Shown: positions 14,001 through 64,000 of the stretch, piece by piece
Position numbering within the stretch: position 1 is the first letter of the stretch
Layout: every line of letters begins with the position of its first letter
NCBI GenBank assembly: GCA_002633005.1
Contig: NMRA01000313.1
Location: 329,339 to 393,338, forward strand
Direction of reading: 5' to 3'
DNA length: 64,000 nt
Source: Phoronis australis
Lineage: Eukaryota > Animalia > Phoronida
The notes under the pieces: model-generated
Told to the model about the DNA's origin: nothing
What the model saw: only the letters and a program-made list of their open reading frames with translations
Database searches by the model: none
Translations under genes and position numbers: made by a program

Positions 14001-14896
14001 AAGTAAATGGAACATGCACAAGCAGACTTGCATGTCCATGGATTAGCTCGTCATTTGTTTAAGCCTTACTGACTGACTCAGTGACACGAGCTCTTTTCAC
14101 GATCATGTCCGAAAATTTGGTGTCTGAACGGGCGGTGGGCGGCTGGCCATTTACATCGCAAACGTGAGCTTGCGAGCTCATTAAATTTTTCGGGACGTAT
14201 GTTGAACATAAATGATATTGCAGATCGATTGTGTGCGTCTTAGGGAACTGATTTTAGACAATGCACGTTAATCATATTAAAGCTGTTCCGGAAACTAGGT
14301 CTTAACCGTAGTGTGTTTACGTTTGGTACGTTTGTAAGTAATTTTCCATTTTTAGTTTTAGCTATTCAATGGGAAACGCAGAAGTAGGCCTCCATGAGTA
14401 TTTGGTTTATGCAAATTATGACGTCTGATATCGTTAATCTTACGCGCACGCACAATGCTATAGACTTCTTTTGCGCATTCATAAATTGTTCTTGGTGTTT
14501 CAGTTGTACAGGAAATATTGATAAACTGTACATGTCTAATAAAACATTTAATTACAATCAATAAACCTGCTTAGCTGATAAATCCTCCAATTACATTGAA
14601 CGTAATCTTCGACTGGCTTACAGTCATTAGTCTAGAGCACGTCGATAGCCGATGGACAACCCATTTAATTAAATTTGCCCCAAATCTCTCCGGATTACCC
14701 ATTGTCAATATACAGTTCCGCATATAGTGATTGCCAGACACGCTGAAAACTCTCGATTGACCGAGTCTCGTTAATAGTCACCGCAACAACAGGGCGACCC
14801 GAACCGACAAGGCCGGTGTACATGTTACGTGTAAATGGTTGACTCTTGTTCACTTCTTTACAGATTTCTCAAGACCGATCCATTCGACTGAGCGTC

Positions 14897-15496
14897 ATGC
14901 CCGAGCAAAGCAACGACTACCGGGTCGTGGTGTTCGGTGCGGGCGGCGTGGGTAAAAGTTCTCTGGTTCTACGCTTCGTGAAGGGCACGTTTAGGGAGAG
15001 CTATATCCCAACAATAGAGGATACCTATAGACAAGTAATCAGCTGCAATAAACAAGTGTGTACGCTTCAAATCACGGACACGACGGGAAGTCATCAATTC
15101 CCAGCTATGCAACGACTGTCAATATCGAAAGGACACGCCTTTATCTTGGTGTATTCCATTGCCAGCAAGCAATCGTTGGAGGAGCTCAAGCCTATCATGC
15201 AAGAAATTTTAGAAATAAAAGGCGATGTAGAAAAAATTCCCATCATGCTTGTGGGAAATAAATGTGACGAAACGGCGCGTGAGACCACAGAAAGTTTTGG
15301 GCGGCAGGTGGCAAAATCGTGGAACTGTGCATTTATGGAAACGTCAGCGAAAACGAATCATAACGTTAAGGAAATGTTCGAGGAGCTGTTGAACTTGGAA
15401 ACAAGGCGAGCTATCAGCTTACAGCCGGCTGACAGCAAAAAATCTAAATCAGATAAACGGAAGGAGAAATTAAAAGGGAAGTGTGTTGTGCAGTGA
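14897..15496 (+). CDS. DIRAS: GTP-binding protein Di-Ras (DIRAS1/2 family), 199 aa, intronless CDS
   Basis: [22 protein letters not shown] start, PTIEDTY effector loop, DIRAS-diagnostic [26 protein letters not shown] and ETSAK motifs, polybasic tail and CAAX CVVQ. Splice acceptor (ttcacttctttacag) ends at 14863, so the 5' UTR is spliced. Confidence 0.97.
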
Positions 15497-19420: not shown

Positions 19421-31638
<12,218 letters not shown>

Positions 31639-34045: not shown

Positions 34046-43093
<9,048 letters not shown>

Positions 43094-46912: not shown

Positions 46913-47034
46913 GTTCAGTAACGCTTGGACCTCGCTAAAACGCAAGACTTCGCGAGATTACGAGAGATATTGCCGTGCATTTTAAATAAGAACACGTGAC
47001 TGACCAGGTTTTAGCTAGGTCCTAGCTACTGAAC
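46913..47034. mobile_element. MITE family Q copy 3
   Basis: Closely matches 16955-17092 (GAGATATTGCCGTG..TTTTAAATAAGAACACGTGA). Confidence 0.8.
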
Positions 47035-47084
47035 GCACGCCAGCTGTGTCGTTGTCGAGTATCTACGGTAAAAACGTTAGTGAC

Positions 47085-47300
47085 AAGTAACTGTCTTATT
47101 GCCCGCGAACATTCGTAACAACTAAACAATATCCCGGGTGACGCAAAATTTGGAAATGAACAAATTGTTACACTGGCCTACTAAATACGAACACATAGCT
47201 GTTTAAAATAGATTTTTCCCCTCTTGTGGCGTTAGGCGCTTTTGAAATATAAGTATCTGCCTTATTACCTGTGAACAGTAGTAACAACTAAACAATATGG
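47085..47300 (+). promoter_or_regulatory. Duplicated 48-bp module in the putative promoter of the kinesin/CCDC78-like gene
   Basis: 47085-47132 vs 47251-47298 differ at 7 positions and the last 18 bp (GTAACAACTAAACAATAT) are identical. Copy 2 runs into a YY1-like ATATGGCG. Confidence 0.45.
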
Positions 47301-48869
47301 CGTCTCCCAGTGTCACCCGTTCGGGTTTTGTTGCAAACGTGGTCGCTGTTTGTTGTCACGAGGCGTAGCGAACGATGTCCATCACATTTCCATAATGTAT
47401 GTCGTTTTGGTTGCGTTTAGCACCTGAAATCAATGTGCTTAAAACATCCACGAAGTCCTCAGTCATACACAGACTGTGGTCGATGTCAACAAACACAGCC
47501 TGTCCCTGGCCCGGCCTGAGGCTGAGCACTCACTCAGTCAGTGACTCAGTCTCTTTGCTCAGGCTCTGTGACTTCAGAAATCATATTTTCCTGAGTGTGG
47601 AAAGAGAATGGATGAAAAATTTGGAACCTTTTCCGAACTATGATGCCACATGTTGCTATTTTGTTGAGCATTTTTGATGTTCAGTAACATTTTGCTGGAA
47701 TTTGCACATCCATCAAGTACACTGGAAGAGTTGCTGCAATTTACCCCTAACCCTGGCTAAACTATAGCGCTCAAATGTAGATGAATACCTTTGGAGGCAG
47801 TTTGAGTCTTTTAATTTTTCAAACTTGAACAAATACTCTCGCAGTCAACATTTTTCCAAATAGCCCTTAATTTCGTTGGCAAAAGACTGAATGCCATTAC
47901 AGTCAGTGTGCTTGAGGTCAAACAGAAACGTGTAGCGGGTTATGGGAAGTCACCTGTCTGCCAACCATGCCAAGAGGTGGCAGCACAGACTGGGGACTTG
48001 TCTATTCTACACGTTGCTAGTGTGGTTTGTTATCAGGGTACCCATCAGATTATCGTCTTGACCACAGTAACAATGTATCGTGAATTAATTTCCGGTACTG
48101 GCCTTTATTTTGGTAACACTAGAAACCAAGAGCTTGACACCTAACCTAATTCAAGTGTTGAAAGCGGCCTATACACCTTGGCTGGACCTTGTAGCATTTG
48201 AGATTGGTCTAAGAAGTCAGTTGGTGTTGAAATGGGTCAAAAGTGGATTGTGCCTGAATTATCTTATCAGTTTGTGCGTAACTGAATTTTCCCAAGTGAT
48301 GACAATCTCACTGATAATTGCTAAGATTTAATACCTAAATATATCATCTTGGAATTAAATTAACTCCGGGGGATACTTGTTAATGATCCTTTTGGTTCAT
48401 GCAAGTATTTTAAAATAGAAACTTTACAAATTTTACTGACATTTTTTTCAAAGATAAGCGCAAGATATAAAAGAGGTCTTAAGATACCTCTCTTAATGGA
48501 AGTTTCCGTTTCTTAATTGTTTTGTTTGGAATACAAGAGCACTTCATGTCGAGTTGTAAGATTTTTGTGGAATGCTTGAAAATTATTTTTTATTCAAAAC
48601 TTATTTTAATGAATACAGGAGTCAAGTTAATTTCTCTTTCTCATTATGTATTACTGATACTACTTTACTAGTACTGGTCATCCATTGCACACTCAAAATA
48701 TAAAAATTTGCATTTCACAATTTTGATATTCACTGCCCCCCATATTTGCCAAAAGTATCTATGTTGAGCCTTAAACTAAGTAGATTATTTTGTTTTCTTG
48801 TCCATATCAAAACGAAACAACCAAGACTGTCTTCTCTGCCAATTTAGACGTACTTATTAACAGTTGACC

Positions 48870-48985
48870 ATGAATGTTGATGTTGTCGGTCGTATACGAC
48901 CTTCATACGGATCTGGACCTCTCCATGGTCTTCATATAGACAGCCATCACCGTATCACCAGCCGCTCAGGAGGTAACCACTTCAG
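48870..48985 (+). CDS. Kinesin/CCDC78-like coding exon 1
   Basis: acag|ttgaccATG; MNVDVVGRIRPSYGSGPLHGLHIDSHHRITSRSGGNHF(S)|gtagg. Confidence 0.85.
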
Positions 48986-51900
48986 GTAGGCAGATTCACA
49001 TATTTCAGAGAACCTGATTTGGGAACGTGTGCCACGCTAGTTTATTCGCATTTCCTTGCATGTGGGATGGGAAAGGAGGTCAGTTTCTGTAGTACAGGTT
49101 ATGAACTCTTGTTCCCGGCCCTCAAATCCTGTGTTTCCTGAGCATTCGAGGCACACTACTGGTAGATTGCCGCCGATTTGTGTACCTCATCCGTGGTTCA
49201 TTACAGAAAGCCATAAACTGTTTTTAAGCTGTACTTGGCTAAGCTGGATGGGGTGATTGGTTTTTACCACTTTTCAGTTTTATGATGGCTGTTGGCAGTG
49301 TGGAGTGACCGTGTGAGTATTGGGCTAACTGTCTCTCTCTCTTCTTGTATTGTCAGTTGCTGGACTTGAGGCAGCTAAAAATTAAATGTGACATTTTTGT
49401 ATTTTGAATCAATAGAATTTGCGATCTTTGATCTGGGGTCTATGGCAAAATCTCAAAATCCGCATGTAACAATCGCAATTTTTCTGGGTACCCTTGTTTA
49501 GTTTTTTGTAATTGTTAGAGTATGCTAGGACACGGGGGTTTCGGAAATTTTGTTCCCAGATCAAAGATCATGGTTCGTTTCGATGCATAAAATACAAGAA
49601 GTCTGGTTCGATTTGAATTTTAGCCATCTTACTCGCTTAATTCAGGCCCACTAACGTTTACTAGTTGCTGGAGCAGAGTTTGGCGAGTGTTTGAATGGGA
49701 ATGGATGTAGTGTGAAATTTTTTAAAATAATTGAATGGGAGTCTCTGTATTCAGTGTATGGCACTGTAACTGTACAGACAACAAAGTTTTAATCATAATA
49801 TTTTTGTTAGAAATACTGTATCAGTAAAAATGTCTTGTGTGTTCTTTTTAATGTTTAGTCTAGTATTCATCTGTTTGTAGTTTTTCAAATTGTAATTTTT
49901 GTGGTGGCAAAGTAAACAGAATCTTAAAGCGTCTATTTCTGACATTGATTTATGTAAAACCTTGAAAGCTGTCAAATTTTAAATTTGTTCTAGTTTCACC
50001 AGTTTCAGCTTCTTCCATTTTCATGTTGTAACTAAGTGCAGTCTGAAGTGTTGCAGGAAATGAATATTTTCCGTCTCGTATGAGTATTCTGAATTATCTT
50101 CATGACGTATTTCTCAGCCTTACCATGCAGACTAATTGACTTTTTGAAACTGCCAGACAGTACCGTACACTTTGTCTCTGATCTCCTCTAGCAGATTTCT
50201 AGCGATGAACATAAAGCTATAGTAGTACATAGATATGACATTTTGACTAGTGTTTCAGGATGTCTATCATGTATTGATTAATTAATTTTCAAGAAGCACC
50301 TGGCCACAAAAGGCACTGTTGTAAAATCAAATCAACTGAAAACAGCAGCCTATAGGGGTTGATGGCTGTAATATGATGGCTGTCTGTCTAGTTTGGCATT
50401 GATAATGAACGTTATACACTTGTTAAGATTTGTTCTTTTATGACCCAGATTTAAAGATTGTATAAACAATGGATTTTGAAAGTCGGTTGTGTGCGAGTTG
50501 TTATCCATTGTCTGCTTTGATAGTAAACCCATGGATTCTATTAAATATCAACTTTTGATTTAGGTCTTTTTTGAAATTCGACTCATTGTGTTCCTTACTC
50601 AGGTTAGAATTGAGATTTGATTAGAAATAATGTGTTGGCTTGAGAAGAACTCAGGACAGGTTCATTGCTTCAGACATCGTCCAATTAAGTTACTATTCAC
50701 CTCAGGTTAGTTTCAGAAGCCAATCAGGAGAATTCAAGAAAAATTATTGAGTAACCAGTTCAATTTAAAGCCTATCATCAACGTTAACAAATTTAATTTT
50801 TTCCTACAGTATGTTAAGAGCATTGCTCTGAGCTCACTAGGTCCATAAACTGACAAATGTAACTGTTAGCCGAGAGAATCACCTTTTAATTCAAAAAGCT
50901 ACAAATAACACCTTCACCCAATGGTGTTCTATTCAGACCCTATTCAATACAACTGTTATCGGCCTTTTGTTGTTTGTGCTGGGATCTCGCGGTGACGCAA
51001 TATGGTACGAAAAGGCAGCTTCATCTATCATTTGACGTGCCTACACTTCCGTGATTAAACTCGCGTTTTCTTATCTTGCTAGGGCTTTGCTATAACTTCC
51101 TGGTTAACCCAATAAACTTAAATTACAAAATTCCATTGAAATTAGGCTTTAACAAGTAGTGCTGTCCACATACAGACTTTACCCTAAAACAAGTTACTCC
51201 TGGAATGACTTGTCGTTAGGTTTAAGGGTTGTGTGTACGCTGTTTAAACTAGTGCAACTTACCCCACCTGTGACAACTTACTACACCTTATCGAGGTGGG
51301 GTAATTTGTTCTAGGGTAACTTGCGCCACTTCTAATTCTTGTGTAGCTGCAAATGTGGGGCAAGGTGGAAGTAATTATCCTTCTTTACATACCGACGGGT
51401 CTTCTTTTGTGCATCGTATTGCATCGACTGTTCATTGTTATGCTCAAAGCGACGACTTCCGCCTTGCACTAGTTATCGGATATTTATGTAGTGACGCTCC
51501 ACTTAAAGTGGTACAAGTTCCACGAGTGCAAGTTGTTCTAGGGTAGGGCCTAAGTCTGTCTATGGACGGGATTAAAGAATTAGCAGAATGACATTAGCTT
51601 GGAGAAGCATTAATACACCTGTGAAGGCCGGTATCTAGGCCTGGGGTCTAATCATTTGTTGGTGGTATATGTGGGTTAATGTGTTATCCTATTTTGTACT
51701 CGATGACCCCAAGATTAAAGCTATAAGTTTGAGTTTTTACTTGAAATCTTGAGTTTGTTGCTCAAATCTACTGTAGGGGTCATCAAGTGAAAATTTAGGC
51801 TACACTCTCGTTTGCATTATCCGTAACATACTCAAGCGCTGACTAATAGATAATGATCTTGAGTTCGTGGGGCAATTGGTTCCTAAACATCCGGTGACTT

Positions 51901-54900
51901 CTCTAAATGGGAGATGCGTAATTAAGTCATTCCTAATTTGAGTAAGGTACGTTTTATGAGTTTAATTTTATAAACGAACTAAATCAGAAGTTGGTTTTCA
52001 CCACGAGTTTATCGTTCATTTTATTGTAATGTGTTTATGTTGGTCCCAGTTCAAAGAATCCATTTAATTCAAAATTTTTGCTGGAACAAATTCTGTTGCG
52101 CATATGGTCTCCAATAGTGACACCTATTGGTCACAAAGTGCAGTATCAGTATATTGTTCCTTAAGGAATTTTCATTTCTAAGTTTTGCCATTCAGTGAAG
52201 GGTACGGTAATTTTTGCTCGTCTTATGATTGATGCGACACTGCATCTGAATGCAGTTGGGCTCTCAGCAACATTATGAAAAAGAGGCTACATACTCTTAG
52301 AGAGCAACAGTTATTTTTTCTCCAATATTCTGCATGCAGTGTTTTTTCATGAAAACCTGTCAACATTATAGTACACGAAATTTTCATTTCCGTCATTTCC
52401 TTTTGAGGAATGGTGCCTGGGCTGAAACTGTAAGTTACATTTTGTGCATTGCAGCTTCCAGAGCTTATACAGGGGAGATAACAACACATATGAACTCTAC
52501 AAGTCTTCTCTCCATTCCCTGTTGGAGTTGTTTGTCAGTGGATACAATGTGTGTACTCTCGTTGCTGGCGAAAGTGGGTCTGGCAAGTCACACCTGGTCG
52601 CGGGCGACTCGGCAAGTTCATCTGGCATCGTGCCCGTGATTTTAGACCACTTGTTTGCTAAAATTGCTGAAGGTACGTGCTTTTGAATTCTCCAAGTCAG
52701 TCTGGCAATGTTTTTAAAAGTTACCGACGTTCAAATGTTGGTAGACCAGTTAAAAATGATGAGTCTTATAAAAATGCTGAACCCAGAAAAATCAGGAACC
52801 TCAACTGGGAATCGAACCGCAGGTCTCTTGATTGCCAGTCTAGTGCTCTTACCACTTCAGCTACTGAGGACCCGATGTCTGTGCTATTACTGTTTGCGGC
52901 CAGCTGTTGTCATACATCCCATGAGAGGCGTTTCGCATTTTCCACATGAGATTTGGACATGGAATTATATAGTCAGCAATTTACCAGTATGTGTTTACCA
53001 GTATGTGTTAATTAGATATAGCAAATATATAGACGCTGAGGTTGGCCAATAGTGAGATACATCAAATAATTGCACTAGCTCAGTGGTAAGAGCACTAGAC
53101 TGGCATTCTAGAGACCTGTGGTTCGATTCCCAGTTGGGTTTCCTGATTTTTCTGTGTTTATTTGATATTTATGCTCGGAATATGTCCCGAAAATAATAGG
53201 TGCGTCGCAAGCTCCGTTTCCAGAGATACAAAGGAGACCGTGTATAGGCGATATAAGGTCATTTATTATGACTGATAAGGTACAGAAATATGAGTGTACA
53301 AATAACATAAAGATAAAATAATAATTTCTGGAAAGATGGGCAATAAAAAGCGCCACGAGAGATGTTGAAGACATCTCATGCCCATGCTGGGGGCTGCAAC
53401 TCCAAAGGCAGAATGTGAATTCACTATTTTAGAATGTGGTTCTTAGAATCGACCTGTCATTTCTAAAACGAGGCTAATGCATATTCCTACCTCCTGGACA
53501 AAGGATATTTCTATCCGGTTCAGTCTTATTGGTCAATTTTTGAGTCTAATGTTGAGACCGGAGATTAGATCCCAGTCTCAAAGCTGGGTGGCGTTAATTA
53601 AAATATTTAAGTTTGATTCTTGATTTCAACTGCGTTGGTCAACACTATCGACGTGAAGCCTGATAGTGTTGGATCATGATGGTGTTGGATCATGATGGTG
53701 TTGGATCATGATGGTGTTGGATCATGATGGTGTTGGATCATGATGGTGTTGGATCATTGATGGTGTTGGATCATTGATGGTGTTGGATCATGATGGTGTT
53801 GGATCATGATGGTGTCGGATCATTGATGGTGTTGGATCATTGATGGTGTTGGATCATTGATGGTGTTGGATCATTGATGGTGTTGGATCATTGATGGTGC
53901 TGGATAATGATGGTGTTGGATCATGATGGTGTTGGATCATGATGGTGTTGGATCACTGATACTATTCAGCGTTTAACTTTTAATGTATGCAGGTCAGCAA
54001 CAGACACCACTCCTTAGATATTACAAGTGGGTTCTCTTTTGAGATGCTGCAAAGCAAATTGACTAGTTTCATAACAACAATCAATTCCACCTGTTTCCCA
54101 AATTCTGCTCTCCTCTTTTGCGAAGGTAGAAAAATGCATAGTATGATCGACCTAGTTTTTGGTAGGCTGCTAATATACTTCCGAGGTGAGAGGAACAAGT
54201 GAACAATTTATCATGCCCCACTCAGTCTTTCGAATGTTTTATGTGCGTGTTGTAATCCGTGTTACACTAAAATTTAAGTGGCATTACAATGTTCGATTCG
54301 TCAACCACGAATTAAGTTGCCACATACAAAATGTTTGTTGCTAAGCGTGCAGGACACTCTTAATTTTCCTTTTGACTAAAAAACTAAAAGAAAACGCCCT
54401 TCGGGCAGTTTTGGGTAGATCAACAGATATTTGTTGAGTTTGCCGGTTCTTTATTCCATCTGTTGCAGCTGTGCAGCCACCACAAAATGGCAACCCCTAT
54501 ATGGTGTTTCCTTGTTTTAGAGACTTCAGTTTCCATTTGGTGACCTGGAAACTTTCCCAGGTCACATTTGGTGAGTTGATGTCGAGTGTCATGCCCTACA
54601 TTAGAATGACTTATGCATGTTATGGTACTTCAAACTAATTTTGATGAAAAACAATGATTAACATTGGGAACAGTGGGATGAATGGCCTACAGAAGCACAG
54701 CGTTGTGGGTATATACTGCTGAATGACAGAGTGCATTGTGGTATTTTGGAAGTGGCTATTTCAGCTCTCAGTCAGCAAGACATGATTGTTGATTTATGAT
54801 GTTATCTAGTGGAAAAGTTTAGCATGTCACTCATTGTAACTTTAAAGGAGCATGCCACCCAAAAAACAACCTATTTTGTATCAATTTACATCGAGTAGTT

Positions 54901-57900
54901 CTACTCGATAACGGCACGTTCGGTTGCGTTACCTGACACCTGACGGCAGACGGAGGTGTTGAAATTATCCAATGACATCATTAGTTTCATACGCAGTCTG
55001 TTCAGCAGTTCACAACACGGGTTATTAGTGTCAGCTTATCACTTGAAGTCATCGCTTAACACCAATAAATCATCAAACTTCAATGTAAAACCCTTAAAAA
55101 TACACTAAGTTCTTATACAAACGTGTTGTTTGATTTCACTTTTACGTATTTATTTGGACACACCGTAGCCTACAAAGTTCGGCAGGCCAATTTACCAATT
55201 GGTTCGAAGCTCGAGTTTGGGGTCTGTGTGGAGATAAATTCGAAGTATTCTTCCGTGAAATACAGACAGGAGAACCTAGATTTGTGTTGTTTAGACTTGT
55301 GATTTTTTGAGTTCTAAACGCTTGTTATCCCGGCCAGTGGCTCGGAACCCGATCAGACCCATCGCGGCCGGACTGAAGACATCACGAACATAAACCAGCC
55401 AAAGTTGGAAATTAAACTTCCAGTCAAGAAAATACTAGACTAGTGAGCCAAAGAAGTTATGTGCACTTGATTATGTTGGTGAATTAGCCACGAAACTGCA
55501 AATCTACTTACTCGTCAGCTGCCACGAATTCAGGTTCCCCTTTGACCCGTCAGTGCAGAAGTTGTACATTTGACAATCATTATTTGAATAATGTATATAT
55601 AAATAAGGATTCCCGTAACACCTGGCCGTGGGATAGAAAATCGAGTTATTGTTTCACAGTTCCTGTCAGCAAACACTGAATTAGCATGCGCTCACATGGC
55701 CTTAGTTGGTGCCCGGTCAATTACCTTTATTGCATATGAATCCGGTAACGCAGCGATTTATTCATTGCTGGCTTCTCAAAACATTTGCACTCATGAGTAC
55801 TCCAATTAGGCATTACAAATTGTATCTAATGAGACAGCCTTTGTTTCAGTTTGATATAAGCATTGGTTAGGGCTGGAATATTTCATTTTGAAACAGAATG
55901 CACAACGTCAACAGAATACGAGAGTTCATCCACCGAAGACTTTGCAGGTGGATCGTTAAGTTTCACAAGCTATCAGTTCGAACCGGAATAAATTGATCAA
56001 GAAATACTAGAGAGGCGCCGTGAACATGCACAGACAACGGAACGTATGGATAGTTCTTTGGTATTCTGGCATTCGTCAGACTCACTGTCAACGACTGCCG
56101 GCCACATCGGACACGGAGATGTTTTACGGCCTCATACTTGTTATTTACAGTGTACTTTTCATTCTTCACTACCGCGAGCCACTTCCTAAGCATTTTGGGC
56201 TCTCGAGGAAGTAAAAAACGATATATCTGCTTTCTTCGCAGCTTCATAGTTTGGACAAGCGGGATGCACAGCAATATAGTGGCATTCACTCTGTAGATGA
56301 ACCATTGACATCGCTGCAACACTTCTCACCTTCCTCACAGGTTAACGCGACACCTCTTGGCAAGGTGAGGTCGACTGCGTAAGAGGCAATGTGGATATAG
56401 ACCGATTCAGATGGAAAAAAAGACTAATTAAATTGGGTGGCATTCTCTTTAAAGGTGACAAAATGAAATTTTGTAATAAAAGTGAATTTATCTGTTAATA
56501 GAGGAACAGTCCCTTGGCTCCCTGGCTTATAACCAGGACAGCAGGGTTACACTACAGATGTATGAAGTATATAACGAGACAGTACGAGATCTTCTCCAGC
56601 CTGGAAGGGGGCGCTCTACTGACTACCTGGAGTTGGATGAGAATCCTGACAAAGGAGTTTTTGTTCAGGTGATACTTCAGTCTATAACTTCCGTTGCATT
56701 CTGGGAAGACTGAGTCTTTGCTGTCATCACACCCACTGTCAGGGTTATTGTCATAATCTTAAAGCTTTTGAGTCTAAACTCGAAATCTTCCATTATAGAT
56801 CTCGAGTTAGACTACTAGCTTGAATTTAGGGGTCAATCAAGTTCAAATTCGAACTAGAAATTCACGTGGCTAAACCATAACTTGCTCGAAAATACAGTAC
56901 TAGAAGCTTATCTTGATTTCAGAGAATAGAGAATAGTTTAGCGTAATTTGAAGTTGAGAGATTAGACCGCGGGTCATGGTTCGATTGTGACATTTGTTCA
57001 AACCCATGTACAGGAGACAGTGTGACTCAGTGGTTAGAGCTCCGGACTCCTGTTTGGGAGACCCGGGTTCAAATCCTGGCTTGACTGGCAGACAATTGAG
57101 CATTGCACAAAGGTGTCTCCTATTCCTCTGAGCGCGGTCTTACTTGTGAACGTGTGCAAGGGAGTGAATGAGAACCTGGATATAATGCAAAAGCGATTTC
57201 TGGGGCTGTGCTCATATTAAAAGTTGGGCTCTGAAAATGTAAATACAGTTACTGTGTTAACTGAATACATTACTGCTCACTGGTCATCTTTTCATGTTTT
57301 TTAATGTTTGATTCTGAAAATTGCGTGTTTTAAATAAACAAATTGGAATTGAAATCTTAATTTCAGGGTGGTGAAAGTGTGTCGTTCAAGAATTCTGCTG
57401 ATGCCACTCGCACATTCCGCCAAGCATTTAGCCGGCGAGTCAACAGCACCACAGACTTCGGACCCGCACGGAATCACTCGACTGTTATTATTTATATTGA
57501 CCTCACCCTGGTATGTAAACTTACCAGAATCTTTTGCATAATCGCTGGTTTTAATCGGTTGAAATTTTTAAATTGGGTGCAGAACTAAGCAGTCCAAAAA
57601 GTGGAGACCAGTTTCAAATAATGAAAGGTGACCTAAATAGAAACTTAAAGTCCTTCTTGCAAACTGACCATGTGGTTCCAGTATCCGAAAATACTTACCA
57701 CATAAATTCTTATTTTCGACACCCTTTCTTTATATTCTTTTCGCCTTTCTTGCCAAAAGCGATTTTTTAACAGTATTTGACCCTTCTCTCTGAGCGTGTG
57801 ATTACCGGTTGTCATCGGTTATTTCCGTACCGACATTTACGGCTCATCAGTTCTGGAACTTGTCCTGAACGCCGCCATTTTTTCCTTGTAACTGAATGTG

Positions 57901-60900
57901 CTATGGCTTGCTTCATTATTTTGTTTTATTAGTAATATATCATGATTCGTTTGCATATGTAGTGTATTTATAGTTTGTAGTTAGTGGTCGCTGATTTTTT
58001 TTGGAATGTTACGCGTACTTAGTATGTTAAAATAGCATTGGTGTTTAGTTCCTTACGTAGGCGGGTCGAACCTAGGAACCAATATGGGTCGAACCAATTT
58101 TTTTCGGTTTTATTTTTTTCTTCGTTTTGAAAAAGTACTTTGCTATCATCGGAAAGGTAGTACATTGTACTCAGTAAAAATCGAAAAAGTATCAAAATCG
58201 GGGCAAGCACTGTAAAGTTATTGCAAGTTTTGTAGCGAAATTTGGGTCACTTTTGGATCGCGTCGGCCATATTGGAGGACAGCGGGATGAGTTACGAGTT
58301 TAAAACTTTGTGTAAATTTTTTTCGCCAACAAATTACGGTGAAATTTAGTTAGACATATCTTTACTTACTATTCTGCACGATTTAACAGTGTTCACCAAT
58401 TTTCAGTTGTTACTCATTAAGTGATAAATGTGCTCACAATTCCCGTTGGACTTCGTCTCATTTCTGGCGGCACCTACAATGTGGACTTTTGCTGAACTGA
58501 AAGGCATGTTCAATCGGCTACTTTGTAATTTGTGAAGATTTAACGTTGATACATTTTGACAAATGTTGCTACAAAAAAGAAACTTTGTTCAATTTTCGTG
58601 TTTTTTTTGTGTTTGTGGTCAGCGACCAGTTAGACCTAAGGGTAGTCTTGGCACAAAGCTGTATAGGCCTACTAACAAGCTGTATTTTGACTATTAGTCT
58701 TCACTGGTAGCTGGTGACTGAGGCTAACTAAGGTCTGCCGCGGCAGTGTGACACAGGACTAACCAGCCCGTTATTTCATGCAAGTGTCTGAAACTACCCT
58801 TGAACATATGCAGCATTTATCATTTGACCATTTTACTTCGACAAAACAGCTTGCAACCGCATGCATTTACCATTCGCCAGTGTTTGGTCTCGATCTGCAC
58901 CTGGTCCGATAGGCTGCGGTCCCGAGTCTGGCAAAATAATTTCTGTCAAAATTTATTCGCCACATTTCTTTAGCAAATTCCATAAAATTGTCCGTAGTTT
59001 GATTTTATCAAAATTAAGGCGCGCTGTTGATTTTTTTTTATCCCCATTTGCTGGCTGGTAACAGTACAGGCACTGCTCCAGTCGCACTGACGGCGTTTTC
59101 TCGGCCTGGGTTCCTGAATGAATTGTACTTCCGGGTTCGCGGCAAGTTTAAAATGGCGGTGTTTCTTCGGGTGCAAATCGTGAGTGGCGTGTTCATTTAA
59201 ACTGTTTTCGAGTACGGATCGTGTATTAGTTATGGGGTAGGTACTTCTTGGATCCTTATAACATCTTCTAACCATGTAATAAGGGTTAACAACGCGTGAG
59301 AGAAGGACTTTAAAGTTGATTTACTTTGACATAAGGCAGATTTATAGGAACATCACACAAGTACTAATGCTTAATCGTTTAGTATGACATCTTGGACCCA
59401 GTCAAATAGAATTAAAATGACAAAATTAAAAAAAAATGAATGCTAGATTTACGTAGCACTGTAAATTACTTGGCACTTTGAAAATTCTTACCTGGTTATG
59501 GACCTGGTCAGTTGTAATCCTTCTCAACTCCTTCTCAACTCCCGGGGATCGTGTAACAAATGCAACCATTTTCTGCACACAGCGATTAATTTTAGACACA
59601 ATTTTGTAAAAGTTTCAAGTGTTATTATGAGCCCGTGCTTACCTGAATTGGAAAAACGTCCAGCAAAACTGGTGAAAATGTGATGTGACTGCATTTTTAT
59701 TACAACTTGTGGACCTAAATCGTGTCACAATAAACATCGTGCTTTCAGCCATCTAGGGACAACCCATATCCTAACAAATCTCGCTTCACTATTGCCATGT
59801 TATCTGGCGTGGAACAGTTGGGAGATGGACCGGAGTACAGGCGTCTCCGAGACGGGGGTCAACTGAGCCAGCCTATAATGGCTGTCAGTAAGTTAGCAAG
59901 CCAACTGTCGCGGGAGCCCTACTCCAACAGAATCATTGACTACAGGTGAGTGAGGCTGGAAAGTATCTGTGGTTATAAATACGTTGTAGTTGTTGTTTCT
60001 ACTGGTTATTTTTTAACTCGCTGTTTGATTTATGGTGATGTAGGACCTCATCGACAAGTCTCTTTATTTAGCCAAATATTAACAAAACTGTAGCTTTTGA
60101 CTTTTTAAAAGTATTTTCTAGAAGCAGAAGACAGATGTGGCTCTGAAATTCACCAGTAGTGTGCGCTACATGAGCTACCACTAACAAAATAATAAAAATT
60201 GTTTGAAATTAAGGAATGTTTCCGTAAGAGGGTTGGGAGAATTCTTATTGTAATAGTAGCATGGAACTTTCTGTGAAACGTCTGTTCTGCATGATTCCAG
60301 TGGCTCCAAGGTGACTCAGCTGTTGAAGGAGGAACTGGGAGGGAACGTCAAGACACGCGTGGTCGTCTGCTTAAAACCAGAAGAGACAGACGCTTTGAGT
60401 CATATGCTCAAGCTGGCCACTGATCTGTCTCTAGTGAAGAACTACCCTGTATTGAATGACTGCTGGGCACAGGTCAGTCATGGTAGTGGATAGTGGAGGT
60501 CGTGACGTGGTCGTGACCAAGGCCAGTTACAATGACTTGGAAAAGACAGTAAATCGAATATGCTCAATTACCATTTTGAGAGCAATAATTCAGTATGTTG
60601 TTCTACGGCCTCTTAATTTGTAAAGACTACAACTTTCATGTATTTGACATTAGAATTTCTTTATTTAACAATCCCTAAAAGTTGTGTGGAAACTCAATTT
60701 GTTTATTTAAAAAAAATTAATATTAATTTATTATTGCACAAATAAGGTCTTAAGGAACATTGTTTGGGTGGCAAAATTTTGTATTTTTGATTTTTGACAG
60801 CAAAATTAATTACATTGCTTCACTGTTTTCAGGATCACGATTACAAAACACTTTCTTTTTAAAATAGTCCCAAAATCGTGTACTATAGTGGTTGGCGAGG

Positions 60901-63423
60901 AATTGATTGAGATATTAGCTAAGTATATTTTTTACAAAACTTTTTTCTGTGCTTACAATGAGATTGTGTTTTCATTTCAGAACCTTATCACCCAGTATCG
61001 AGCACGTATATTAGATGGTCAAAGGTTACTAGGTACTGGAGTTGGGCTGATTACCCCCAATGGTGTTGGTAACCCCAGCGACGCACTGCAGAAGATGTAC
61101 ACTGAAAATGTAAGAAACGAGGCATGTTGAATAAATCTTTACCATAAGAATACTGTCTGCCCTGTTCGCGTTTATATATACGTGAAGCTGTGCCAATATC
61201 TCAAATCTGGTTCATGTGTCTTTCTGTAAATAATCATTGGGTAAATTGAGAAGCGATAGTGTGTGAATCAAACTAGACTTTTTTGTTACAAAATGACATT
61301 TAGTGTAGATAAGTATAGTATGGACAGAATGTACAAGCGTTTGAGGTGTACATGTCACTTGTCTGTTTGCTTGGCAACAGATGCAGCTGAAGGACAAGAG
61401 TGAACGTCTGTTCAACAGAATGGAACAGATGCAGGGTCGCTATGGACATCTGGCTAATAGTAAAACAGACATCTCGGCTCAACTACTGGCAGCTGAGGAG
61501 GAAAAATTGAAGGTGTGTGACTTTTCACTGTTTTTATGTTATTTCAATTCTTATATTTAATTAACAAAGCGTGCACACACTTTGGATTACAGGTTATTAT
61601 ATACATTTCTTTTGGTCTTTTTATGTTTTTTCTTGTGCATGACGAGAATGGTGAATTTTGGAAACTTGTTCCATTTCGACATATGACTGGAAAAGCCACC
61701 TGCTGTGACGAAAGCAATTTCCTGCATTCGTTTGGTATCCTTTGGCCAATAACATGGAAATATTGTATCAATTGTCTTTCGAAATAAAGATCTTGATGTT
61801 TTGAGATCAGTTAGTAAGTGGGTATTTCATCATATATCGGTATAAAACATAATTGCTATTTGTGATATCTTTTAAAACATATCCTATTAACAGCTTTTTG
61901 GAGAACAGTCTATTAAGCATGATACTTGGAAGTTTCACATGAATCTGGTAAACCAATTCTGAGATATAGTGCTCTGAAGTTTGCCAAATTTGGACATTTT
62001 TTGAAGGTCCTGCGTAATCTTAACTACTCTGAGCACCTTAACCCTTATCCTGCTAAGCCTCTATTCAGACAACTTTCCCTGTGTGCTAAGCTAAGTAGGT
62101 CACCACTGCTGCTATGCACTGGGCTGTTATGAAGGTCACTCAGATTAATGACCTAACATTTTTAAATTGGAAATTTGAAGGGGTAATGTCAATTTTACAT
62201 AAAAGTAGTCTGCACAAAAGTTGTTCAGAATTTAATGGAGTTTTTCACCATATACATATCTTTACCATCGTCTTGCTGTGAATAATTCTATTAACTTTCA
62301 AACTGGACACTCTTTGTTTTTATCTGTTTTCGCACATGAGAACATTATAGCAGACACTCAAAAACCGTAATAAGCATTTTTAAAAGGGAATTCATGGGAT
62401 TTGCATGTTTAACAAAGCAGATTTATTGTTTGTAACATCACATCTACAAACAAGAATGTACAGTATATAACATAGGGCCTACCTCAACTTTGCACGATAA
62501 CAAATTTATGAGTGGTGCAGTCGCTTGCTAAAGTCTGTTTTGAAGTTCACCTTGACATGCAAAAACTTGAATCACGGGTGGGGACACAAAACTATTCTGT
62601 GAAAAAGTCACAAAAATATCTAGTTCTGAATGAGTTCCATCATGCGCGAATGGCGTGAGCCAAGCATCGTCGTAGGCCCGTCCAAGTTCAGCTTCAGGGA
62701 CCGGTAACTCCTCCAAAATTGCACCGAGATCCGAATCGATAGAATCTGCATTACTTGTGACTGTTGTATTAGTTTCCCAGTCACTGTCACCGTCACTTTG
62801 AGTAGCAATTCCAGCTTGTTTTCACTATCTGAGTCCATGAACACTTCCTCAAGAAACTGGTCAACAGTCATCTTACCACGTTTGGCACCAGCCAAGATAA
62901 AACTTGCGTAAACTTTCAAATATCTCAGCAACAACTCACCACAGCCATATGTTGTAAATCAGAAAAATGTACAGGAAACTATGGACTGTGGAATGCGCAT
63001 GCTCACATATATAACCAGCATACGGGGCTTTCACAATTTCTGAATGAAAAACACCAGTGTCCTGGGGTGAGTACACTCTCCTTGCGCAGTCTAGCCGTAG
63101 CTTATTATAGGCGATTGAGTACACCCGACGCATTTTAGTAGGATAATTGGCTTGTCGGCTGACCTCGCCTAGCGCAGGATAAGGGTTAATCACAATTCAC
63201 AATAGTGATAATATATTGGGAACTTCTTGGACAATTTGAAGTTTTGAGATGAAGACGGGTTATAATACTTCTTGAATATCAAAGTTATGTTAGGTCCCTC
63301 AGTATTGTTTAATCCAATATTTAAAATTTTATACAGATCTCTCAAGCACTGGTTGAAGTTCAGATTGAGAATAACAAGATACAGGAAGAGATGGAGGCTT
63401 CCAAGTTTGAGCTGACGAACAAG
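48870..63423 (+). CDS. CCDC78: Kinesin-motor-domain / CCDC78-like coiled-coil protein, 5' part (454 codons, continues beyond the last exon found): join 48870-48985, 52455-52672, 56502-56668, 57367-57510, 59749-59945, 60301-60472, 60981-61109, 61381-61512, 63337-63423
   Basis: Nine GT-AG exons join with matching phases and no stop. Kinesin motifs VVGRIRP, GYNVCTLVAGESGSGKS, YEVYNETVRDLL, SKVTQLLKEELGGNVKT, VKNYPVLN are followed by EEEKLK|ISQALVEVQIENNKIQEEMEASKFELTNK, which I recognise from memory as CCDC78-like. Confidence 0.85.
51165..51568. mobile_element. MITE with degenerate ~45-bp TIRs
   Basis: GTCCACATACAGACTT..TACCCTAAAACAAGTT vs reverse complement GTCCATAGACAGACTT..TACCCTAGAACAACTT. 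Confidence 0.6.
52455..52672 (+). CDS. Kinesin/CCDC78-like exon 2 (P-loop)
   Basis: ttgcag|(S)FQSLYRGDNNTYELYKSSLHSLLELFVSGYNVCTLVAGESGSGKSHLVAG...GIVPVILDHLFAKIAE|gtacg. Confidence 0.92.
52780..52863 (-). mobile_element. tRNA-derived SINE head / tRNA-like pseudogene, minus copy
   Basis: Reverse complement reads TAGCTGAAGTGGTAAGAGCACTAGACTGGCAATCAAGAGACCTGCGGTTCGATTCCCAG, with A and B boxes. Confidence 0.7.
53076..53158 (+). mobile_element. tRNA-derived SINE head / tRNA-like pseudogene, plus copy
   Basis: A box TAGCTCAGTGG, anticodon-like stem CTAGA-CTGGCAT-TCTAG, B box GGTTCGATTCC; T and acceptor stems do not pair properly. Confidence 0.7.
53661..53960. repeat. Minisatellite, ~18 copies of 16/17-bp unit GGTGTTGGATCAT(T)GAT
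   Basis: Direct reading; two length variants are interspersed. Confidence 0.95.
54846..56448 (-). mobile_element. Kolobok-like non-autonomous element with decayed THAP remnant
   Basis: TTAA at 54842-54845 and 56449-56452. TIR AGGAGCATGCCACCCAA vs AGAGAATGCCACCCAA. Minus-strand remnant MPLYCC.. (ATG at 56285) and RFLLPREPKMLRKWLAVVKNEK..HLRVRC. Confidence 0.7.
56502..56668 (+). CDS. Kinesin/CCDC78-like exon 3
   Basis: aatag|(E)EQSLGSLAYNQDSRVTLQMYEVYNETVRDLLQPGRGRSTDYLELDENPDKGVFVQ|gtgata. Confidence 0.92.
57013..57225 (+). mobile_element. tRNA-derived SINE (second family)
   Basis: A box TGACTCAGTGG (~57023), B box GGTTCAAATCC (57066-57076), followed by non-tRNA body and an AT-rich end. Confidence 0.6.
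57367..57510 (+). CDS. Kinesin/CCDC78-like exon 4 (switch I region)
   Basis: tttcag|GGESVSFKNSADATRTFRQAFSRRVNSTTDFGPARNHSTVIIYIDLTL|gtatgt. Confidence 0.88.
57649..59309. mobile_element. Probable Kolobok-like non-autonomous element (1.66 kb)
   Basis: TTAA-AGTCCTTCT at 57645-57657 and AGAAGGACT-TTAA at 59301-59313; only a 9-bp TIR; no coding remnant recognised. Confidence 0.55.
59749..59945 (+). CDS. Kinesin/CCDC78-like exon 5 (switch II region)
   Basis: tttcag|PSRDNPYPNKSRFTIAMLSGVEQLGDGPEYRRLRDGGQLSQPIMAVSKLASQLSREPYSNRIIDY(S)|gtgagt. Confidence 0.9.
60301..60472 (+). CDS. Kinesin/CCDC78-like exon 6
   Basis: ttccag|(S)GSKVTQLLKEELGGNVKTRVVVCLKP...VKNYPVLNDCWAQ|gtcagt. Confidence 0.92.
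60981..61109 (+). CDS. Kinesin/CCDC78-like exon 7 (neck region)
   Basis: tttcag|NLITQYRARILDGQRLL...DALQKMYTEN|gtaaga. Confidence 0.88.
61381..61512 (+). CDS. Kinesin/CCDC78-like exon 8 (coiled coil)
   Basis: caacag|MQLKDKSERLFNRMEQMQGRYGHLANSKTDISAQLLAAEEEKLK|gtgtgt. Confidence 0.9.
62042..63185 (-). mobile_element. Internally deleted piggyBac-type transposon (1144 bp)
   Basis: TTAA at 62038-62041 and 63186-63189; perfect 12-bp TIR CCCTTATCCTGC; minus-strand remnant of an acidic transposase-like N-terminus (KRGKMTVDQFLEEVFMDSDSE). Confidence 0.85.
63337..63423 (+). CDS. Kinesin/CCDC78-like exon 9 (CCDC78/DUF4472-like segment)
   Basis: atacag|ISQALVEVQIENNKIQEEMEASKFELTNK|gtaagc; in phase with exon 8; absent from the ORF track. 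Confidence 0.88.
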
Positions 63424-64000
63424 GTAAGCAGACGACATTGTATGCATAGAATTTAAGCCTGCTATAAATTAGTTACAATTTAATACAAAATATCAGGAAT
63501 AGAAAACACCTAGTGTCTTTGAAAATGTTGTCAATTTTCATTTTTTGTCAGTTTAGTAGCTTAGTTGAAGTTGTTTCAACTCAATTGTAATGAGACCAAG
63601 TGATATTCAATGGTTCAGAAAAACAGAAAATAATGCAGTCTTTCTGTAGTTGCAGAATTTGTGTTCATAGTTTAATCCTTTGATGCCAAATGAGAGCATG
63701 TAATTAAGTATTACCAGGAAGAGATAACCAGGAAGGGACAACTGTTTTAGCGCATTTTAACGTGATTTCAAACGTGATTTCAAAAGTAAATGTTCAAGTT
63801 ATCTGGAATCCAAACATTATTTTTGAAAGATTAACTCTTTAGCTATAAAATGACACCACTTTGGTCCTCAAAGACTGCATATTACTGGCACTGGGATGCT
63901 TTGAACGTGACATGTTTACCCTTCCAAAAGATGCTTCTTCCCAGGCATGTACTCGGGCATGAGCCTCTTTTTTGAACCAACAGATGTCACTAACATATGC

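Follow-up and report, generated by a model that had tools for sequence, protein, structure and literature searches.

Gene structure and transcription

The 64,000 nt stretch of the Phoronis australis genome analysed here (the window; contig NMRA01000313.1 of assembly GCA_002633005.1, forward-strand positions 329,339 to 393,338) carries a gene that is, by homology, an orthologue of CCDC78 in its long, head-bearing form, with a kinesin head joined to a DUF4472 coiled coil. Nine exons, all with GT-AG introns, span positions 48870-63423 of the plus strand and form a single open frame of 454 amino acids (aa); the frame is still open at the end of the window, and the gene extends beyond it. Coding exon 1 (48870..48985) carries the start codon and the RxRP base-binding motif of the head (aa 1-38; family hidden Markov model (HMM), independent E-value (i-E) 1.7e-6), exon 2 (52455..52672; Pfam Kinesin, E 2.4e-11) carries the P-loop GESGSGKS (52567-52590), and exon 3 (56502..56668; Pfam Kinesin, E 1.2e-6) encodes the beta4-L7-L8 part of the head. 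Helix alpha3 and an altered switch I, TDFGPARNHST (57451-57483), are found in exon 4 (57367..57510; family HMM i-E 1.6e-11), and switch II, MLSGVE (59797-59814), is in exon 5 together with L11, alpha4 and the start of L12 (59749..59945; family HMM i-E 2.2e-15). Exon 6 (60301..60472; Pfam Kinesin, E 2.4e-5) supplies L12/alpha5, beta8, alpha6 and the neck linker's root. The neck helix and linker (exon 7, 60981..61109) and the coiled coil (exon 8, 61381..61512) have RNA joints on both sides, the former being also supported by homology and the latter by a long helix in a modelled orthologue. Exon 9 (63337..63423) starts the DUF4472, or CCDC78, domain (Pfam PF14739, 35.0 bits against a cut-off of 26.6), which follows the coiled coil and of which just the first 29 residues fall inside the window.

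An earlier interpretation made from the letters of this DNA alone (the sequence-only reading) had described a pseudo-kinesin at 57367..59945. The motifs it quoted are real and all lie in one open, GT-AG spliced frame. The P-loop is intact, as it had reported, and lies in exon 2, outside that interval; the L12 string is also present, spanning the exon 5/6 joint (59945/60301), with its second half beyond the interval.

Three raw RNA runs from one study (X2-X4) were sampled, with approximately 18-19% of each being mapped to positions 47000-64000. Reads from X2, X3 and X4, respectively, cross the joints between exons 1 and 2 (22, 8 and 0), 4 and 5 directly (18, 16 and 1), 6 and 7 (21, 12 and 0), 7 and 8 (24, 13 and 0), and 8 and 9 (31, 9 and 0), giving read support to at least five of the eight junctions among the joints listed. 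Those of exons 2-3, 3-4 and 5-6 fall outside the joints listed and rest on splice signals and homology. All first mates of the junction reads map to the minus strand, the orientation that plus-strand RNA gives in most stranded libraries. The CCDC78 gene is spliced and expressed. The contrast between 8-31 junction reads per joint in X2 and X3 and 0-1 in X4 suggests tissue- or stage-restricted expression. Low stranded RNA depth is seen 5′ of the start codon (47000-48133), possibly representing a 5′ untranslated exon. No X-box consensus was found upstream of the gene, and forkhead-like sites are no denser there (6 in 2.4 kb) than in the window overall (149 in 64 kb).

Alternative exons that might supply canonical switch motifs, a possibility raised with the sequence-only reading, were ruled out by a six-frame motif scan and two HMM scans. 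Neither SSRSH nor DLAGSE is present in any of the six frames of the window. A canonical-kinesin HMM and the family HMM, run over 3539 stop-to-stop pieces, matched only the six head exons at i-E <1e-5, and therefore no alternative exon supplies the canonical motifs.

Identification as a kinesin-headed CCDC78

Pfam Kinesin matches exons 2, 3 and 6, and DUF4472 matches exon 9 above its cut-off. The motor domain is complete, scoring 175.8 bits against the canonical HMM over aa 3-333. A homology search with exon 2 returned 151 proteins, and seven full-length homologues align over all 454 aa at 35-45% identity. The best full-length matches are mostly named CCDC78 or CCDC78-like and come from a clam, flatworm, hemichordate, amphioxus, sea anemone and sea urchin; a sponge match is weaker (28%) and likewise named CCDC78. 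Of 7990 candidates scored in a profile search, 161 were hits, and the 120 of these that were listed comprise 84 proteins with both Kinesin and DUF4472, most of which bear the name CCDC78, 35 with DUF4472 only and one with neither. A second profile search produced 31 hits, including the ciliate Stylonychia and cryptophyte-like proteins. A word-indexed search with exon 2 alone found no match among 404 candidates, which is weak evidence, and nothing useful in PDB or the Atlas matched exon 5 alone. Four family members (P0160, P0165, P0166 and P0228) are annotated as CENPE, KIF19 or KIF3B-like, labels that hide the family in databases.

A quick tree was built from 56 heads, comprising 41 of the 104 family proteins, 14 of the 42 canonical kinesins and the window model. 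The family falls on one side of a branch from the 14 canonical kinesins (Shimodaira-Hasegawa-like approximate likelihood ratio test, 100), the window protein groups among annelids and molluscs (support 95), and the family roughly tracks animal phylogeny. The gene is an ordinary member of the kinesin-headed CCDC78 family. This identity, and the family-wide and ancient nature of the motif pattern, had both escaped the sequence-only reading.

Residues kept and lost across the family

The family set comprises 104 proteins, including isoforms and fragments, among them 60 named metazoans (one per genus) and 21 'protist-like' members (the only named ones being Guillardia, Hanusia and Stylonychia). 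The 42 canonical kinesins were selected for having SSRSH and DLAGSE, making this set circular for the switch residues. The columns given below as K91, H205 and E311 are our own presumptive assignments. Numbering is that of kinesin-1, and residue roles follow published work (PMC4924600, PMC4383081, PMC3226556).

None of the 104 family proteins contains SSRSH or DLAGSE. The P-loop is kept almost throughout (K91 in 96/97, T/S92 in 94/98), as are two residues of switch II (G234 in 95/102 and E236 in 99/102), with D231 present in 43/101. Switch I is heavily altered: N198 is absent from all 94 proteins scored, H205 is found in one of 98, and S201, S202 and R203 are kept in 26, 18 and 30 of 97. N255 is retained in 59/104 and K281 in 81/103, R278 in only 5/103 and the alpha6 Glu (E311) in 1/102. 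The replacements are themselves conserved, forming the family motifs T-D/E-F/Y-G at switch I (Gly in 53/54 and 21/21) and L-P-G-x-E-K-L at switch II (Pro in 58/59 and 18/20). The fold, alpha4 and the L12 sequence Y-x-x-S-K-L-T are also conserved.

In the window protein the P-loop fits GxxxxGK[ST] and the RxRP motif is intact, both being conserved in the family. Switch I reads GPARNHST in the family register and does not match the canonical NxxSSRSH, while switch II reads MLSGVE in place of DLAGSE, with the Asp lost and the Gly and Glu kept. The protein is unusual in having Met at D231 and Ser in place of the family Pro, and Ser also occupies both the Asn255 (alpha4 linchpin) and Arg278 (L12) columns. 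On a 14-residue functional checklist it scores 5, compared to means of 6.1 for named metazoans (52 of 60 complete), 8.2 for protist-like members (19 of 21) and 13.6 for the canonical kinesins (34 of 42; motif-selected and so circular for the switches). As aligned, switch I is lost and switch II is only half lost, and the odd switches are an ancient family signature and not local decay. The statement that both switches are degenerate holds for switch I and overstates the case for switch II; similarly, the salt bridge between the switch I Arg and the switch II Glu is broken as proposed, on the switch I side alone.

Graded loss of the head

Arg or Lys occupies the switch I Arg column in every protist-like member (21/21), cnidarian (5/5) and echinoderm (5/5), and in none of the 46 other metazoans; the sponge alignment is unreliable at this column. 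In the window protein, an Arg lies two positions upstream of the column. Protist-like members also keep the switch II Asp (19/20), Gly (20/20) and Glu/Asp (20/20). Of 51 non-tetrapod metazoans, 50 have an intact P-loop consensus (GxxxxGK[ST]), shark and lungfish heads among them, as do 21/21 protist-like members; it is broken in all five tetrapods with models covering it (three caecilians, axolotl and alligator; P0204, P0207, P0208, P0209 and P0225). A further 36 listed vertebrate records, from ray-finned fish, turtles, python and birds, have no Kinesin hit; these are gene models, and 34 of them lack any trace of the head, the other two being Trachemys isoforms that keep about 38 residues. PMC12796433 states that vertebrate Ccdc78 has no motor domain, but the head is present in records from shark, ray, lungfish, caecilian, axolotl and alligator.

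Predicted structure and microtubule face

The Tegillarca orthologue (47% identical), folded with 75 sequences, was used as a structural proxy. Its model covers the full head (mean predicted local distance difference test score (pLDDT) 85.8; predicted template modelling score (pTM) 0.70), in which switch I forms a hairpin and a short helix, and a long helix follows the head. Every listed Foldseek match is to a kinesin motor, save for a single axoneme chain with a title that gives no protein name; the best (E 5e-30) is to KIF13B, and identities are 22-28%. The kinesin fold is thus predicted to be intact. Net charge of the microtubule face, a crude proxy of affinity summed over four segments of our choosing, is +6.7 ± 2.3 in canonical kinesins (n = 31), +2.7 ± 1.7 in the metazoan family (n = 58), -0.7 in protist-like members (n = 19) and -1 in the window protein.

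Other features of the window

Upstream of the CCDC78 gene are two tubulin exons of about 290 codons each, lying approximately 13 kb apart on the minus strand (22664-23527 and 35479-36351; Pfam Tubulin and Tubulin_C). Their motifs suggest that both are alpha-tubulin. A single-exon Ras-family GTPase gene (14843-15496, plus strand; Pfam Ras, E 6.6e-48) ends in CVVQ and presumably encodes a Di-Ras-like protein. Within intron 2 of the CCDC78 gene, a 16-base unit is repeated in tandem at 53661-53960 (18.2 copies, 95% matches). The regions at approximately 54400-56450 and 57600-59400, in introns 2 and 4, are deeply covered by RNA reads of both strands, among which differences and loose ends are many, and represent interspersed repeats. 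Short related elements at approximately 52770-52880, 53050-53170 and 57010-57110 look, by eye, tRNA-derived, like short interspersed nuclear elements; two of them are oppositely oriented, and an opposite-strand RNA joint is found at 53058/53168.

Function of the head

The reading we favour, with some reserve, is of a head that serves as a docking module, holding nucleotide but not moving, and carried on a coiled coil whose likely role is to bundle microtubules at motile ciliary tips. Hydrolysis by kinesin-1 needs the R203-E236 bridge, S201/S202, G234 and N198 (PMC4924600), and its coupling to the microtubule is through N255 (PMC4383081). Because Asn198, Ser201, Ser202, Arg203, Asp231 and the Asn255 linchpin are all replaced in the window protein, it very probably neither hydrolyses ATP productively nor steps. 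The conserved P-loop and RxRP motif suggest that Mg-nucleotide is still bound, and we consider it fairly probable that it serves as a structural cofactor. The non-motile head proposed previously is likely, and it may still bind nucleotide. The P-loop would hold nucleotide without the switch I residues needed to split ATP, the head would be a passive docking module and not a stepping motor, and the coiled-coil tail would bundle microtubules at the ciliary tip. Loss of R278 and the lower net positive charge suggest weaker binding to the lattice than in motors (PMC3226556), and on balance the head may bind microtubules weakly or not at all, mainly positioning the protein or binding a partner while the tail bundles. 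Headless vertebrate Ccdc78 bundles microtubules as in vitro translated protein and marks the extreme ciliary tip (PMC12796433). By analogy with its orthologues, the window protein would be located at ciliary tips and deuterosomes, and CCDC78 orthology favours the role in cilia or centrioles that had been suggested.

Several observations weigh against this reading. The canonical HMM sets ARNH on SRSH with two gaps, keeping the Arg and His. Even in that register the switch I Asn and both Ser would be lost, and the other register needs no gaps when the family profile is aligned to KIF14 and CENP-E; in it, the Arg of protists, cnidarians and echinoderms shares a column with the window His; the column of the ARNH Arg holds Arg in only 1/56 metazoans. 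The Gly and Glu of switch II are kept in most of the family, and the neck-linker root (N328, P330 and N333) is at least 90% conserved in metazoans, which could mean that a nucleotide-driven conformational change survives. Lys281 of L12 is also widely kept, the predicted fold is that of an orthologue standing in for the window protein, and the charge comparison is approximate.

The same features bear on other explanations. The head could act as a rigor-like static clamp, gripping microtubules tightly whatever the nucleotide, as Costal2 does, and cross-linking them together with the tail. Static binding is known for Costal2, whose switch I reads SPLAH, the immotile KIF7 is a tether for complexes at cilia tips (PMC5881503), and the conserved fold, alpha4 and L12 would suit such a role. 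However, the Arg278 (5/103) and alpha6 Glu (1/102) columns are rarely kept, the microtubule face carries a net charge of -1 as against +2.7 in the metazoan family and +6.7 in canonical kinesins, and headless orthologues bundle without a head (PMC12796433), making the clamp unlikely. For the same reasons of residue and charge, the tight binding implied by a static microtubule scaffold, as first envisaged, is doubtful. A dead head might instead serve an active kinesin partner as a foothold, in a heterodimer of the Kar3-Vik1 or TbKifX2A-TbPH1 type, and be carried to the ciliary tip. There are precedents (PMC4338441; bioRxiv 10.1101/2021.09.29.462327), a neck helix is conserved after the head, and Kif3ap co-purifies with vertebrate Ccdc78 (PMC12796433), but this last link comes from a headless orthologue, and we regard the heterodimer as improbable.

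A slow but real ATPase with rewired catalysis, such as a tubulin- or tip-sensing switch, would fit the protist-like members, with their basic switch I residue and nearly complete switch II, and the window protein does have the nearby upstream Arg. Against this, no bilaterian outside the echinoderms (0/46) has Arg or Lys in the switch I Arg column, Asn198 is missing from 94/94 proteins and the window switch II Asp has become Met, so that it is given equally little credence. The least credible explanation, by far, is a vestigial head with no function, or a gene decaying as a pseudogene. Many vertebrates have a broken head or none, and the head of the window protein has an identity of 0.38 (eighth lowest of 58) and departs from 6 of 57 conserved columns; the echinoderms and Capitella depart from more (7-9). 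Head identity among metazoans averages 43% pairwise, close to the 46% of the neck, and the head is therefore under constraint, with 41 of 331 columns at least 90% conserved. The open frame, spliced stranded RNA and constrained head rule out a pseudogene, as had been argued from the frame and splice sites.

Comparison to known systems

The combination of kinesin and CCDC78 domains is already published for Tetrahymena I7LVY1 (PMC10522465, PMC12796433) and is found in public annotation. That protein, with the same layout as the window gene, is at least fourfold down in FAP256/CEP104 knockout cilia and is a proposed tip-cap component; the accessible text of both papers treats it as a predicted kinesin, with the lost motifs unmentioned. 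The ciliate compared here by sequence is Stylonychia, not Tetrahymena, and has Lys in the switch I column and DMPGSE at switch II. Vertebrate CCDC78 (Xenopus, mouse and human) has the orthologous DUF4472 coiled coil, is found at the extreme ciliary tip and deuterosome and bundles microtubules, but is headless, unlike the window protein (PMC12796433).

Vik1 and Cik1, suggested previously as the model, share a non-catalytic kinesin fold on a coiled coil (PMC3384419, PMC4338441). They are a poor guide, as Vik1 has no nucleotide site, binds microtubules tightly and partners the active motor Kar3, whereas the window head keeps its P-loop. A closer likeness, by description only, is to Costal2, with its altered switch I; Costal2 and KIF7 (kinesin-4) have immotile heads that act as tethers, although these are Hedgehog scaffolds with tight microtubule binding and no known connection to DUF4472 (PMC5881503). 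Trypanosoma TbPH1 also has an N-terminal, likely inactive kinesin head, but it is inactivated at Walker A and not at switch I, and carries a PH domain (bioRxiv 10.1101/2021.09.29.462327). Neither motif loss in the CCDC78 family nor heads in sharks, lungfish and amphibians were found described in the literature covered (subscription papers and supplements were outside its scope, and Supplementary Fig. 11 of PMC12796433 may bear on this), and the dead-motif property of the family is apparently undescribed so far.

A broader scheme is put forward tentatively, in which CCDC78 is a eukaryote-wide, so far unrecognised kinesin family whose head was switched off stepwise: Asn198 and His205 disappeared at the root, most bilaterians dropped the switch I Arg, the P-loop broke in tetrapods, and bony vertebrates deleted the whole head several times. 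The invertebrate and shark form could then cap the motile ciliary tip as a nucleotide sensor or clamp that does not hydrolyse, and human CCDC78 would be a motor minus its engine. The published claim that vertebrate Ccdc78 lacks a motor domain is now qualified, and a gene known for the ciliary tip and as a myopathy candidate would be recast as the remnant of an ancient kinesin. The natural series, from a near-complete active site to no head at all, may reveal which switch residues are dispensable and what a kinesin head that does not walk does at the tip of a cilium.

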